From Nitrospinales bacterium (GTDB taxonomy: Bacteria > Nitrospinota > Nitrospinia > Nitrospinales > VA-1), in assembly GCA_965262115.1 (NCBI GenBank), contig OZ253496.1, forward strand, positions 1,760,001 to 1,824,000: 64,000 nucleotides of DNA, in the 5' to 3' direction. Shown piece after piece: positions 8,056-52,576 of this stretch; within the stretch, counting starts at the first letter, position 1; every line of letters begins with the position of its first letter. Position numbers and translations under genes: made by a program. The notes under the pieces are model-generated. The model ran no database searches. It saw only the letters and a list, made by a program, of their open reading frames with translations, and had not been told where the DNA came from.

Positions 8056-8094
8056 TAGCCCTCCGGGGCAAAAAGGCAAAGGTTAAATATCACT
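8056..8094 (-). repeat. ~40-bp micro-element copy
   Basis: TAGCCCTCCGGGGCAAAAAGGCAAAGGTTAAATATCACT; close to the reverse complement of the 47903 copy. Confidence 0.75.
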
Positions 8095-8776
8095 AGTGGG
8101 CGGAATGCATGCTATGTGTTTTTTTCCGTTGTTCTTCAGTCAGCAGGTTGAGCAAAGCGATTTTTGCTTCTGCCGTTGCCATGATCATTTGAGTTTTGGT
8201 CGCGGCAATTTTCCCAGCCGCTGATCGGATGGCTTGGGCATTTACCTTCTCAGCATGGACCAGTCTGTTGAACTCCATATGCGCAATTTTGTGCTCGGCC
8301 TTGTTGCGAATGCTTTTCTTCCGGTATTCAAATCGCAGTCTCTTGACTTCCGCCACCTGGGCTTCGGTCAGGCCCAGTTTGTCTTTGAAGCGTAACAAAT
8401 GGGTGAACGGGCATTTGCTGGTGTGGCTTCCATGTGAACTTTTTTTATAACCGTGACCGGATCGGGCATGGTGCGAACTTCCTTCGGACTTTTTGTAACT
8501 ATGTCCCTTTGATTTTCTATGATGGTAATAGGATTTTTTAGAGCCACTTCCTTCCGCTTTACGATGACTACTGTTTCCAGATATATGATGGCCCTTGCTT
8601 CCGGAAATATGGTGGGGCATTGTTTTGGTTTTACTGCCCTCAGCTTTTTTCTCTCCATGACTGTAACTGCCGGCACTGCCGGTGCCGATGGAGTCCATTC
8701 CGGTTGCAGCCAGAGCGCTTTGGCTGAAGAACAGGGTTGCAGTCAGAATGACCAGTCTTATTTTCAGATTAAACAT
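8093..8776 (-). CDS. Spy/CpxP/ZraP-like periplasmic protein with His/Ser/Lys-rich N-terminal region
   Basis: Signal peptide, LGLTEAQ and LLTEEQ (LTxxQ) motifs. Confidence 0.8.
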   Translation of the reverse strand: MFNLKIRLVILTATLFFSQSALAATGMDSIGTGSAGSYSHGEKKAEGSKTKTMPHHISGSKGHHISGNSSHRKAEGSGSKKSYYHHRKSKGHSYKKSEGSSHHARSGHGYKKSSHGSHTSKCPFTHLLRFKDKLGLTEAQVAEVKRLRFEYRKKSIRNKAEHKIAHMEFNRLVHAEKVNAQAIRSAAGKIAATKTQMIMATAEAKIALLNLLTEEQRKKTHSMHSAH

Positions 8777-8910
8777 AATCCTCTCCTTGCTTTTGGGTGA
8801 GACCGAGGCAAATCATTTTTTAGCCTGAACCTTTTCCGATAGCCCAACAGGGCAGTTGCCAGTTTAATGCAGGTAAAGCCGTGCTTCACAACTGGCCCTA
8901 CGCTTGGTAA

Positions 8911-8987
8911 TGGTACGCCCGGCAGGATTCGAACCTGCGACCTACGGATTCGAAGTCCGGAACTCTATCCAGCTGAGCTACGGGCGC
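8911..8987 (-). tRNA. tRNA-Arg(UCG)
   Basis: GCGCCCGTAGCTCAGCTGGATAGAG...CGGA-CT-TCG-AA-TCCG...GGTTCGAATCC...CCA. Confidence 0.95.
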
Positions 8988-9000
8988 ATGTTTAAATAGT

Positions 9001-9045
9001 TGGGGTGATCGACAGGATTTTAATCCGCCTCCACGGGAGCCACAA
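9001..9045 (-). pseudogene. Degenerate 3' half of tRNA-His(GUG)
   Basis: Reverse complement TTGTGGCTCCCGTGGAGGCGGATTAAAATCCTGTCGATCACCCCA: anticodon loop GTG, decayed T-arm, His-type CCCCA end; no 5' half. Confidence 0.7.
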
Positions 9046-9243
9046 CACAATGTATTTTAAGGCTATATGTTATGGAAAACGTGTGGATGTTTCCTTATGT
9101 ATTTTGCTAAAGAAAGACATTCTATATGGTATTGCAAAAGAAGGGAACAAGAAAATTTTAAATAATTTTTGGATCCGATGAGCTTCGGGATAGGATTCAG
9201 GGTGTTTCCAAAATTATTGTGTCAGAGGGAAATTGAGGAAAAA

Positions 9244-9915
9244 ATGGTCAAGGCATTGGGTGCGTTTATATTTATAGGAATTATGCTGGCCTTCCTGATC
9301 TTCAACACGCCTGTGACCCGGCTGGGCTCAGGGTTCCTCGTTGGTGATGGGAGGCATGTATTCACCTATCATGATCTGGTGAAAAAAGCGGGAGTCCTGA
9401 ATGTCAAATTCCCCAACGAAGATGATATTGAAGCGGAGGTGATGTTTCTCGATCCTGCCAGCAACCTGGCGATATTGAGATTGAATGAAATGCCGAAAGT
9501 AAAGTGCCTGCCTCTAGTACTGAGTGAAAAAGGATTGGGTCCGCGAAGTGAGTCGGTATTCACATTGGGATACCCGTGGACCAACACTCTGGAAGACCAG
9601 CATGTTTTAATCGAAGGATCCGCCGACACCTCGTCGATGCTGATCGGATTAAAGATGGCCCTTGACCCGGTGCATAGTGGAAGTCCATTGTTCAACTCTC
9701 GGCAGGAGGTGGTGGGAATGGTGTTGTTGGAGGCACATGCCAAAGCCGCGTTTCCAGTGGAGGCTTCGCATCATTTTGCTATCCCGGCATTGTTGTTGGA
9801 AAAAGCCATGAAGGCGGGTAGAATTGATAAAGTCGCTCATCCGGTTGAGAACCTTTCGAGAAATGCGTTCATTTCAAGATCGAGAAATAATATTGTTCTG
9901 ATTGAGGCAAGATAA
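9244..9915 (+). CDS. Membrane-anchored trypsin-like (S1C) peptidase-fold protein
   Basis: GSGFLV, xLAILRL, LGYP, SGSPLFN..VVG; N-terminal TM helix. Confidence 0.8.
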   Translation: MVKALGAFIFIGIMLAFLIFNTPVTRLGSGFLVGDGRHVFTYHDLVKKAGVLNVKFPNEDDIEAEVMFLDPASNLAILRLNEMPKVKCLPLVLSEKGLGPRSESVFTLGYPWTNTLEDQHVLIEGSADTSSMLIGLKMALDPVHSGSPLFNSRQEVVGMVLLEAHAKAAFPVEASHHFAIPALLLEKAMKAGRIDKVAHPVENLSRNAFISRSRNNIVLIEAR

Positions 9916-50318: not shown

Positions 50319-50364
50319 CTACTAGCCGTAGGGGCAACTTGCAATATATTTATCTGCTAGCAAC

Positions 50365-51273
50365 TGATCTTCCCCTGTTTTAGTGGACAGTTAGTTAAGA
50401 GGCATAGGCCTGTTTCTCGAATTCGGCAGGGCTGAGATAGCCGAGATATGAGTGACGGCGTTGCCGATTATAAAACACTTCGATATATTCAAAAATATCC
50501 TTCTTTGCTTGCTGACGGGTTTTGTAGTTCCGGTTATGAATGAGTTCCACTTTGAGAGTATGGAAAAAACTCTCCGCCACGGCGTTATCCCAGCAATCGC
50601 CCTTCCGGCTCATACTGCACTCTATCCCATGAACATTGAGCAAGGCTTGAAAATCGTTGCAGGCATATTGAACCCCCCGGTCAGAATGGTGAATCAATCC
50701 CGGTTTCATGCCGCCGTTCTTCATTGCCATATTTAAAGCTCTCATTACCAACCAACGGGTTATCCAACGATCCATGGCCCAACCAATAACTTTACGGTGG
50801 AATAAATCCAGCGTCACCGCAAGGTATAACCAGCCCTCTTGAGTCGGGATATAGGTGATATCCGAAACCCAGCATTGACCGGGCTCAGCAACATTAAACC
50901 GCCGTTGCAGTTTGTTTTTTGCCACCGGGTGATTATGTTTGGAATCGGTTGTCACCCTGAACTTTCTTTTGTGCTTGGCAACGATTCCATGCTCGCGCAT
51001 AAGACAGGCAATACGATGCCTGCCAATGGCATATCCCTTGTCTTTCAAGTCCTCATGAATTCTGGGACTGCCATAAGTCTGGCGACTCTTCTTATAAACG
51101 GTTTTGATCTCATCAACCCATCGCTGCTTCTCACGGCTCCTCAGGCTCTCGGGGCGGCTCAGCCAGGCATAGAACCCACTTCGTCCCACTTCCAGAACCC
51201 GGCACATCGGGCTTACCGGAAATGCTTCTCGATGATCCCGTATAAACCGATATCTCATTGGGAACCCTTCGAG
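50365..51273 (-). mobile_element. IS3 right half (IRR plus orfB), copy 2
   Basis: Near-identical to 14196-15104; orfA and IRL absent. Confidence 0.9.
50395..51258 (-). CDS. IS3 OrfB DDE transposase, copy 2
   Basis: As copy 1 with one R-to-C change. Confidence 0.9.
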
Positions 51274-51294
51274 TACCCCTTGTATGTTGTTCAT

Positions 51295-51511
51295 AAGGGG
51301 AATTTGTAGTAGTTGTACCTGTGAGCCCTGTGGGAAGCCGGTTTTGTGTTTTCCACAAGGCTCACAGGGTTTGATTCAGGGCACAATAGATCGTTTACCC
51401 CTTGGGCTTTTAAGCCCGTCCCGAAGCGCAGATCGTTGTGTCCTATTTTGATTAACCCGAACAGTTGCCTGGGCCACTGAGCCCGCATCGGCAAGGCTGG
51501 GAGACCAAATT
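51295..51511 (+). ncRNA. Predicted bridge RNA, copy 2
   Basis: Same guides as copy 1 (LTG 51395-51402, RTG 51420-51426, LDG 51461-51468, RDG 51491-51495). Confidence 0.85.
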
Positions 51512-52462
51512 ATGAATCAGAAACCCCATTTTATTGGCATCGATATTTCTAAACTCCATCTGGATGTTGCTGACAGCATGACTCAAGAAACCTGGCAAAC
51601 CGCTAACAATGAAGAAGGGATTGCTGGTTTGGTCGAGAGTTTATCCGCCTTAAATCCTCCATTGATCGTTTTGGAAGCCACAGGCGGCTTAGAGATCCCG
51701 TTGGCTTCGGCCCTGGTTGCGGGTCGACTGCCAGTAGCCGTGGTCAACCCACGGCAAGTTCGTGATTTTGCCAAAGCCACCGGGAAACTGGCAAAAACCG
51801 ATGTCATTGATTCTCTTGTGCTGGCTCATTTTGCCAAGGCCATACGTCCTGAGGTCAGGAAAATCAAAGACGAAGAATCTCTTGAACTCTCAGCTCTAGT
51901 GACACGCCGTCGCCAGTTGATCGAGATGCTGACCAAAGAAAAAACCCGTCTAAAACAAGCTCCAAAATGGATATGTAAAGACATTAAGGAGCATATCGAA
52001 TCTCTTAAAAAACGCTTGCGAAAAATCGATGGCGACCTTTCCAGAACCATCAAAAACAGTTCTGCCTGGCGTGAGCACGACCAGATCATACAAAGTGTTC
52101 CCGGTGCCGGTCCCGTTCTGGCTGTCAACCTCTTGGCCGGGGTTCCGGAACTTGGAGTTCTTAATCAGAAGCAAATCGCCGCCCTCATCGGTCTCGCTCC
52201 CCTCAATCGGGACAGCGGAAAGTTCCGGGGCCGCCGGTGTATCTGGGGCGGTCGCGCCAATGTGCGTGCCGCTTTATACATGGCCGCCGTCACTGCCATG
52301 CAGCATAATCCCGTGATTCGTACCTTTTACACACGCCTCATCGAAAAGGGCAAACCCTTTAAAGTTGCCATTACCGCATGCATGAGAAAGTTATTAACGA
52401 TCATCAATACCATGATCAAAACAAAAACACTCTGGAATGAAAATCTCATTGCCAGCACTTGA
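51512..52462 (+). CDS. IS110 DEDD recombinase, copy 2
   Basis: 316 aa; HFAKAIRP versus HFARAVRP in copy 1. Confidence 0.96.
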   Translation: MNQKPHFIGIDISKLHLDVADSMTQETWQTANNEEGIAGLVESLSALNPPLIVLEATGGLEIPLASALVAGRLPVAVVNPRQVRDFAKATGKLAKTDVIDSLVLAHFAKAIRPEVRKIKDEESLELSALVTRRRQLIEMLTKEKTRLKQAPKWICKDIKEHIESLKKRLRKIDGDLSRTIKNSSAWREHDQIIQSVPGAGPVLAVNLLAGVPELGVLNQKQIAALIGLAPLNRDSGKFRGRRCIWGGRANVRAALYMAAVTAMQHNPVIRTFYTRLIEKGKPFKVAITACMRKLLTIINTMIKTKTLWNENLIAST

Positions 52463-52479
52463 CATTTAACACAGTTGCT

Positions 52480-52576
52480 TCGGGGCATGAAAGCCAATGA
52501 AGTGATATCACATGCGGCAATCGGTTTCCTCGGCTTGTCTATCCCTCCTAACCCTTTTCATGCCCCGCAAGGGGTG
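52480..52576. repeat. Micro-element half (52480-52512) plus an inverted intact copy (52536-52576)
   Basis: TCGGGGCATGAAAGCCAATGAAGTGATATCACA; TGTCTATCCCTCCTAACCCTTTTCATGCCCCGCAAGGGGTG. Confidence 0.8.

Follow-up and report, generated by a model that had tools for sequence, protein, structure and literature searches.

The 64,000-nucleotide stretch analyzed here (the window) covers positions 1,760,001 to 1,824,000 of contig OZ253496.1 from a marine Nitrospinales bacterium (GenBank assembly GCA_965262115.1), whose 2.68-Mb genome, G000 in our set, is a single contig and 93.9% complete. Between positions 8,056 and 52,576 the window holds many copies of a small repeat, hereafter the element. It starts with N-GTGATAT, continues with 12-15 variable bases rich in pyrimidines and then with the foot YTCN', and finishes in a hairpin made of the stem arm TGCCCN, the loop, and the closing arm NGGGTA. 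An initial annotation listed 14 copies, all of which are present where it placed them and measure 38-41 bases; two are split by an insertion sequence (IS) of the IS110 family, and two others serve as hosts to a guest copy of the element that divides them. Its consensus, YGTGATATT...GGGGTA, is corrected here in that the first base is N rather than only a pyrimidine and is part of the element. The copies are listed here with the insertions that interrupt them; G019 is a related genome and X8 a sequencing run.

8056-8094, minus strand: full copy, 39 nt, slightly decayed (base 1 is A, the foot base is T)
10545-10583, plus strand: full copy, 39 nt, A:T type, within a CGTC-type hairpin repeat resembling repetitive extragenic palindromes (REPs)
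11118-11158, plus strand: full copy, 41 nt
15105-15110, minus strand: 3' stem arm of a copy in an IS3 orfA/orfB junction, severed by IS110
15113-16309, plus strand: IS110 in the hairpin loop of a copy; 316-amino-acid recombinase at 15343-16293
16310-16344, minus strand: 5' portion of the IS3-junction copy, comprising leader, middle, foot, 5' stem arm, and loop
30827-30867, plus strand: full copy, 41 nt; orthologous site in G019 empty, gap 0
30877-30956, plus strand: host copy (30877-30895 and 30937-30956) with a guest within its middle region
30896-30936, plus strand: guest copy, 41 nt, in the orientation of its host
35086-35102, plus strand: 5' motif without a hairpin, the same in G019 and abutting a start codon; a doubtful member, proposed initially as a partial copy
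36026-36064, minus strand: copy with a decayed 5' motif, also in G019
39152-39230, minus strand: host copy (39209-39230 and 39152-39168), its guest in the opposite orientation
39169-39208, plus strand: guest copy, 40 nt; an X8 contig skips 40 bases
47903-47940, plus strand: full copy, 38 nt, 3 bases off the end of a tRNA gene
47998-48036, plus strand: full copy, 39 nt; precisely absent from an X8 contig
51274-51279, minus strand: 3' stem arm past a second IS110 (recombinase at 51512-52462)
52479-52512, minus strand: 5' portion of a copy that the second IS110 interrupts
52536-52576, plus strand: copy with a decayed 5' motif, 41 nt

The locus at 52479-52512 is likely a recombinant, since its left flank is not IS3 orfA, and in G019 the copies at 47903 and 47998 are merged by a 95-base deletion.

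The copies in the window belong to a much larger population. A profile built from nine of them and refined in one round (nhmmer, E<=0.1) gives 392 matches in G000 and 0 in the Markov-shuffled genome, and a structured pattern gives 254 matches in G000 and 5 in shuffled DNA. Only 12 of the 392 lie fully within open reading frames (ORFs) of at least 200 amino acids, though such frames make up 75% of G000. The roughly 390 copies are not a product of chance, and as high-copy extragenic hairpins they resemble REPs and REPINs (paired REPs). A strict pattern is found in 20 of 24 genomes of the host family and in 0 of 16 other genomes of the order; the hairpin half alone is found in 36 of the 69 genomes searched from this family and, elsewhere in the phylum, in 3 of 50 (reversed control 0), with 0 to 307 matches per genome. 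In the genome collection, 79 of the first 80 of 124 loci with a pattern match carry Nitrospinota titles; a metagenome scan gave 130 stretches with a match and a viral scan 3. The element is thus largely restricted to one Nitrospinota family. No Rfam family matches it, the window yielding just 5 tRNAs at the gathering score, and no description of it was found in a literature search whose scope lay outside subscription journals and ISfinder. Copy density in G000 drops from the inferred replication origin toward the terminus (133, 101, 71, and 71 copies per 300-kb distance bin), a slope that two other repeat families of the genome share. Two phage-like contigs, L289 (181-219 and 3001-3039) and L290 (3001-3070), carry copies, one of them a tandem pair, and are a possible route between genomes.

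Evidence for movement comes from sites at which a copy is absent. In the 1.19 Mb compared with G019 (about 95% identical to G000; about half of the G019 genome), 4 of 76 sites are empty, 16 are filled, and 56 are unresolved, whole repeat clusters differing there; all 4 resolved empties have a gap of 0. Both ends of the element are fixed. At the 47998 copy a contig from run X8 lacks 39 bases, one letter being ambiguous, and it skips 40 bases at 39168-39209, the guest copy, where the in-between letters are not known; an X8 contig also holds a copy at 37820 that is not in the window. Runs X3 and X4 show no empty allele within 29600-49500, in contigs that drop rare variants; RNA runs, which contained less than a tenth of the words, were left aside. 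IS3 homologues in G048 and G016 have an empty orfA/orfB junction with no base gained or lost. Among 76 paralogous contexts with an empty match, 70 have a zero-gap empty form and the remaining 6 have gaps of 1-3 bases only, one of these being a mis-parsed end. The target of the 10545 copy, initially called a MITE palindrome (MITE standing for miniature inverted-repeat transposable element), is instead a CGTC-type REP-like hairpin repeat, whose empty form occurs 22 times in G000. The empty forms that the initial annotation had rebuilt for the IS3 junction, this palindrome, and the 39152/39169 nest are therefore supported by other copies, genomes, or contigs, whereas that of the 30877/30896 nest remains a reconstruction, this nest being also present, partly deleted, in G019.

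Base 1 is missing from the empty site in every clean case and is therefore part of the element; readings of it as target-derived or as a 1-base target-site duplication (TSD) were rejected from the empty sites and from flank statistics. No TSD was detected, flank identity of 1-6 bases being at chance over 119 roughly independent sites. With neither terminal inverted repeats (TIRs) nor a TSD, the element is not a MITE, and in lacking both it is like the IS200/IS605 family. One host-plus-guest compound occurs at five different sites, which indicates that cargo in a large loop can move along. No long copy around a gene was found apart from the IS110 insertions, which together with the empty alleles supports the view that the element is not the end of a larger IS. 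We have hardly any doubt that the element is mobile and precise; the empty alleles bear out its earlier description as a non-autonomous unit that inserts without TSD or TIR.

The sequence of the element suggests how its ends may be held together. Length is 39-41 bases in 445 of 477 distinct sequences, and the loop is GNA in 83% of distinct copies, closed by C:G in 302, G:C in 75, and T:A in 45 of the 477. Triloops of the form d(GNA) are described as very stable in DNA and dependent on the closing pair, in the portion of the source cited here (PMC3201870). The G:C closing-pair variant is enriched among nested or tandem copies in G000 (32 of 58, against 21 of 147 for C:G). The commonest foot tetranucleotides among the 254 pattern matches are TTCA (139), TTCG (44), TTCT (37), and CTCG (11), and the strongest covariation in G000 links the fourth foot base, N', with base 1. 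This N:N' pair occurs in all four Watson-Crick forms, the G:C form having been predicted from the foot TTCC in relatives and then found 7 times. It is Watson-Crick in 628 of 704 copies, and is formed in 410 of the 477 distinct sequences against 210 expected and in 51 of 65 copies from 50 further loci of other genera. Because 12 identical middles each occur with two different end pairs, linkage alone does not explain the association. In an alignment of 90 of the 139 available 39-mers from other genomes, a structure with bases 1-2 paired to the foot plus a 6-pair stem has 98.9% of cells paired (covariation 0.220 versus 0.064; 0 of 500 shuffles), compared with 17-62% for slid controls. When folded as circular DNA, 5 of 6 copies form the dumbbell on their written strand without prompting, and head-to-tail dimers with the exact junction that a circle would have occur 25 times. 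These patterns suggest that N:N' pairing would bring both ends onto one helix capped by a DNA-type GNA triloop, and we consider it likely that this pairing takes place in a single-stranded form.

The sites that receive the element are mostly other small palindromic repeats and its own copies. A repeated flank accompanies 205 of 243 full copies (84%), compared with 24 of 120 random intergenic points, and the targets include hairpins of the CGTC type and purine-rich ones, IS3, an IS5-like gene, and, in either orientation, other copies of the element. Further small repeat families (window 37830-39140, 47100-47260, and many flanks) are likewise targets and are nested within each other, one of them being a CCAC...GTGG hairpin with 87 matches. 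Target choice follows a weak sequence rule, with G at -5 in 74 of 119 sites, a purine at -3 in 87, and A at -2 in only 8; the right flank is A-rich at +1 to +3 without a fixed target word. A copy-specific guide in the variable middle was rejected (1836 register tests, best 0.37 versus 0.31), as was a target in the form of a hairpin spanning the junction (60% versus 55-56% in controls). Copies show no bias relative to neighboring genes (84 in the same and 85 in the opposite orientation), which speaks against a plain terminator role.

Nested copies carry a peculiarity of their own. Where a guest sits at the 5' loop edge of its host, 21 of 28 hosts have the stem arm TGAGCC or TGAGCG (for example, G000:C1:1287380-1287470), 2 have other changes, and 5 are intact. 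The altered arm amounts to a change of CC to AG at -4/-3 and is absent from free copies (0 versus 151 in G000, 0 versus 312 in the loci). At 266 filled sites with paralogous empties, novel bases peak, among the results listed, at -4 (32) and -3 (27) versus 0-13 elsewhere, the peak coming mostly from self-insertions into element copies. Two readings are possible: the element alters two bases of its target on insertion, or recombination spreads a cassette that is already altered. In favor of a cassette, five hosts with a loop-edge guest in other genera lack the alteration, a similar left flank is seen in another target repeat, no such change accompanies seven insertions that follow a C-run in a different target, and G019 deletions fuse copies at the core.

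The two IS families that meet the element in the window relate to it in different ways. IS3 is a host: its orfB is present in 17 copies in G000 that are 99-100% identical (window 14226-16619 and 16 other places), and all 15 of the orfA/orfB junctions found are filled by the element. The 41-base insert blocks the -1 frameshift route and its removal restores the route; as a speculation, a +1 slip in the C-run of the stem could also restore the fusion. IS110, in turn, takes the element as its target. In G000 it has 26 left ends, all 17 distinct upstream contexts of which are the foot and stem of the element, while its right ends run on into the 3' arm, with a 2-base core. The 5' non-coding RNA of IS110 (window 15113-15342) folds well (z -3.8), and an internal loop holds two guides of 9 bases each, one of which has the sequence of the left target while the other is complementary to the right target, a layout described for bridge RNAs in the cited part of PMC11208160. 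With DEDD and Tnp domains and guides that match the landing site over the 2-base core, the 15113-16309 insert is an IS110 with a bridge RNA. Homologues in G013 and G016 keep the guides, the G013 copy sitting in an element, and four homologues from another family have different guide letters (the homologue loci are L460, L463-L466, and L468); one of these other-family guides looks complementary to a CGTC-type repeat. The first stem of the IS110 RNA resembles the altered host stem, probably by chance. Because close homologues were found in only 9 of 120 genomes, and not in the copy-rich G019, G007, and G022, IS110 is a parasite of the element and not its mover.

Our screens for the mover rest on flank association plus five Pfam families. 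Single-tyrosine (Y1) transposase genes are present in 16 of 70 family genomes, two-tyrosine (Y2) genes gave no match in G000 or in 14 control genomes, and a tyrosine-recombinase search of G000 returned four integrase-family matches. The sole reverse transcriptase match in G000 is broken by stops, and no intact one was found. Among 27 genes with a copy on both sides there is no transposase except IS3 and IS110, and one GIY-YIG gene, in CGTC repeats. No recurring unexplained family appeared among the 28 largest clusters of 1021 ORFs located at most 400 bases from a copy in G000, G019, or metagenome loci, and no enzyme gene was linked to copies among the results listed for 50 loci from low-copy genomes or lay beside the match in 3 viral contigs; a dense copy cluster in G013 encloses only an IS5-like gene. 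CGTC-type hairpins flank the stand-alone GIY-YIG genes, and hairpins of the purine/pyrimidine kind flank the DUF559 genes (G000:C1:2573200-2573538 and 1589978-1590298; L354, L357, and L365). Each nuclease has its own repeat type, and they are possible movers of those repeats.

We tentatively propose, as a reading that is plausible but short of probable, that the element is a non-autonomous unit of 39-41 bases that would move as a single-stranded DNA circle, its own pairing holding the ends together and a putative strand-transfer enzyme acting in trans. On the written strand, C-N'-T-G-C-C-C would serve as a splint for bases 1-2 and for the final six, and the two flanks would then exit the continuous helix at a single nick. 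An exchange there would set free a dumbbell circle while leaving the empty site clean, and insertion would be the same exchange run backward. Read as T-C-N'-T, the foot would pair with the circle junction in the register of TnpA-REP, the transposase associated with REPs, for which the relevant section of PMC3479197 describes the fourth guide base as dictating the base 5' of the break and the third base the one 3' of it. The parts of this proposal differ in strength: we lean toward an intermediate that is DNA and circular, as predicted from folding and the 25 head-to-tail junctions, and an enzyme with HUH-like chemistry, inferred as HUH- or tyrosine-like, is a possibility we would put somewhat lower. 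Single-stranded DNA is favored over RNA, the other route initially suggested, because of the GNA triloop and the lack of transcription bias; the enzyme classes initially named are unproven.

Several results weigh against this proposal. The circle has not been observed. As linear molecules, copies show no folding advantage over shuffled sequences (z -1.0 to +1.1 in 6 folds), and circular fold energies are only -1.5 to +0.9 kcal/mol, which implies that the splint needs a protein. Kinship among copies inflates the covariation counts, 46 of the 477 distinct copies have a C:A mismatch at the end pair, and five copies in G048 and G049 lack the G2:C pair. Base -1 is A in 33 and base +1 is the same as the element's own base 1 (N) in 27 of the 119 sites, so the guide-like bases of the element do not set the target. 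Copies show no replication strand bias (200 versus 192, p=0.72, with the origin taken from GC skew). No Y1 gene was found in G000, nor in G013 and G007, the other copy-richest genomes, and a copy lies beside a Y1 locus in 2 of 21 loci, on one side only; the Y1, HUH, or reverse transcriptase gene flanked by the element that might have been expected was thus not found, and the Y1 genes of relatives are not flanked by it.

Given that no cognate transposase was found for an element that spans a whole family, the same folded intermediate might instead be cut by a stand-alone GIY-YIG or DUF559 protein, acting as a small structure-specific nuclease, or by a housekeeping enzyme, and sealed by host ligase or repair, with no dedicated transposase. 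G000 has several stand-alone genes of both kinds, flanked by the main target repeats of the element (CGTC-type and purine-rich hairpins), and the excess of repeated flanks points the same way. However, the copies beside GIY-YIG lie within CGTC repeats at the usual target position, the tested GIY-YIG subfamily is in 0 of 6 genomes of genus g15 whereas the element is in 6 of 6, DUF559 was not found in G007 (82 strict copies), and seamless joints fit hydrolysis and ligation less easily than strand transfer; we regard nuclease-driven movement as unlikely. The complete filling of the IS3 junctions across 17 near-identical copies would be explained by removal from the transcript, and the same pairs, including the G-T wobble, are possible in RNA, so the element could conceivably be transcribed, held by its paired ends, circularized or reverse-spliced, and copied back by reverse transcriptase. 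This seems quite improbable to us: the GNA triloop is a DNA motif, orientation relative to genes is even, the only reverse transcriptase match is broken and Rfam has no match, and a filled IS3 could have moved in trans or through a +1 slip in the stem.

Spread might also be mainly passive, with host repeats as carriers, short-homology recombination or gene conversion, and few true transpositions. The repeated flanks of 84% of full copies, two G019 deletions that fuse neighboring copies at the conserved core, middles that look mosaic, and an altered host stem common to many nested compounds and readable as a spreading cassette are all in keeping with this; yet gap-free insertions into IS3, an IS5-like gene, unique intergenic sites, and the element's own reverse strand have no donor homology, and fixed ends with a compensated end pair need end-specific chemistry, which leads us to give passive spread little credence. 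A role of the resident IS110 recombinase as mover, in the way that ISPpu9 mobilizes its small ssr9 module, is largely refuted, and we assign it a very small chance: IS110 insertion is scarless and the family is active here, and ISPpu9 circularizes its small module alone according to the part of the report cited (10.1101/2025.01.17.633520), but the IS110 target loop encodes the element's hairpin as a target, the element's sites share no core dinucleotide, and IS110 homologues have the narrow distribution given above.

Among known systems, the cyanobacterial small dispersed repeats (SDRs) are nearest in kind, likened by description and not by sequence. SDR1-8 of Elhai et al. from 2008 are reportedly 21-27 nt long, nest in one another, and leave no TSD. 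The SDRs of Nostocaceae are very small, non-coding, and found at preferred sites that include other repeats (PMC5861425). They are not known to have an enzyme, and the element is like them in its precise insertion and nesting. The element differs in being larger (39-41 nt), in belonging to another phylum, and in its terminal GNA hairpin with a compensated end-to-foot pair. With REPs and REPINs mobilized by TnpA-REP (RAYT, the REP-associated tyrosine transposase), it shares, on the basis of the cited sections of PMC3116915, PMC3479197, PMC8266576, and PMC6006769, hundreds of extragenic hairpins of 20-50 nt, four conserved 5'-foot bases, a register like that of GTAG with C^T, and the role of IS110 landing site. 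The initial annotation set the element apart from typical MITEs and REPINs by its small size; precedents this small exist in SDRs and in REPs of 20-50 nt. REP membership itself would imply a GTAG or GGAG foot, a flanked Y1 gene, and a doublet unit: the foot here reads YTCN, its fourth base being variable, the element does not flank any RAYT gene, there is no fixed target dinucleotide, and the element comes and goes as a singlet at orthologous sites, whereas the REPIN study, in its cited sections, reports excision of doublets and none of singlets.

Derivatives of IS200/IS605 are similar in having no TSD or TIR, asymmetric ends, and a hairpin with a 5' guide about 20 bases off the end. Unlike them, the element has one hairpin serving both ends, a guide that pairs with its own base 1 rather than with a fixed target word, no fixed 4-5 base target, no replication-strand bias, and no TnpA found in G000; unlike IS91, ISCR, and Helitrons, it has no fixed 3' target word. 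The CGTC-tagged repeats, described in the cited part of PMC3733652, are likewise small hairpin repeats with no known dedicated transposase and occur in the same genome, but they are targets, and the element lacks the CGTC tag, with its palindrome confined to the last 15 bases. As covered in the cited part of PMC11208160, IS621 and further IS110 elements that target REPs resemble the window IS110 in their target loop, two guides overlapping a 2-base core, and small-repeat landing site; this likeness concerns the parasite only, and the target of the window IS110 is the present hairpin. In its workings the element resembles the end of a REP or IS200/IS605 reduced to a single hairpin, yet it belongs to neither. 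It is doubtful, though conceivable, that it represents a new class of minimal mobile DNA: a 39-base dumbbell circle with its own recombination geometry, an undescribed or housekeeping mover, large-loop cargo, and rewriting of the target from CC to AG in one genus, in which case reversible removal from IS3 would make it an intron at the DNA or RNA level.

An integrase fragment beside a tRNA and a DUF932 gene (window 7712-7995 and 11283-12251) are the remnant of an integrated element; the region of both is absent from the compared G019 contig.

How repeats of 20-50 bases spread without a recognizable transposase is an old open question, raised by REP singlets, CGTC repeats, and SDRs. The present element makes it testable, with ends mapped to the base, a compensated pair, and a predicted circle junction. 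A scarless 40-base insertion unit that tolerates cargo would be a compact tool, and the IS110 aimed at the element's loop is a natural bridge RNA programmed against a mobile target. Within the host family, a copy number that ranges from 0 to more than 300 allows the enzyme to be sought by profiling.

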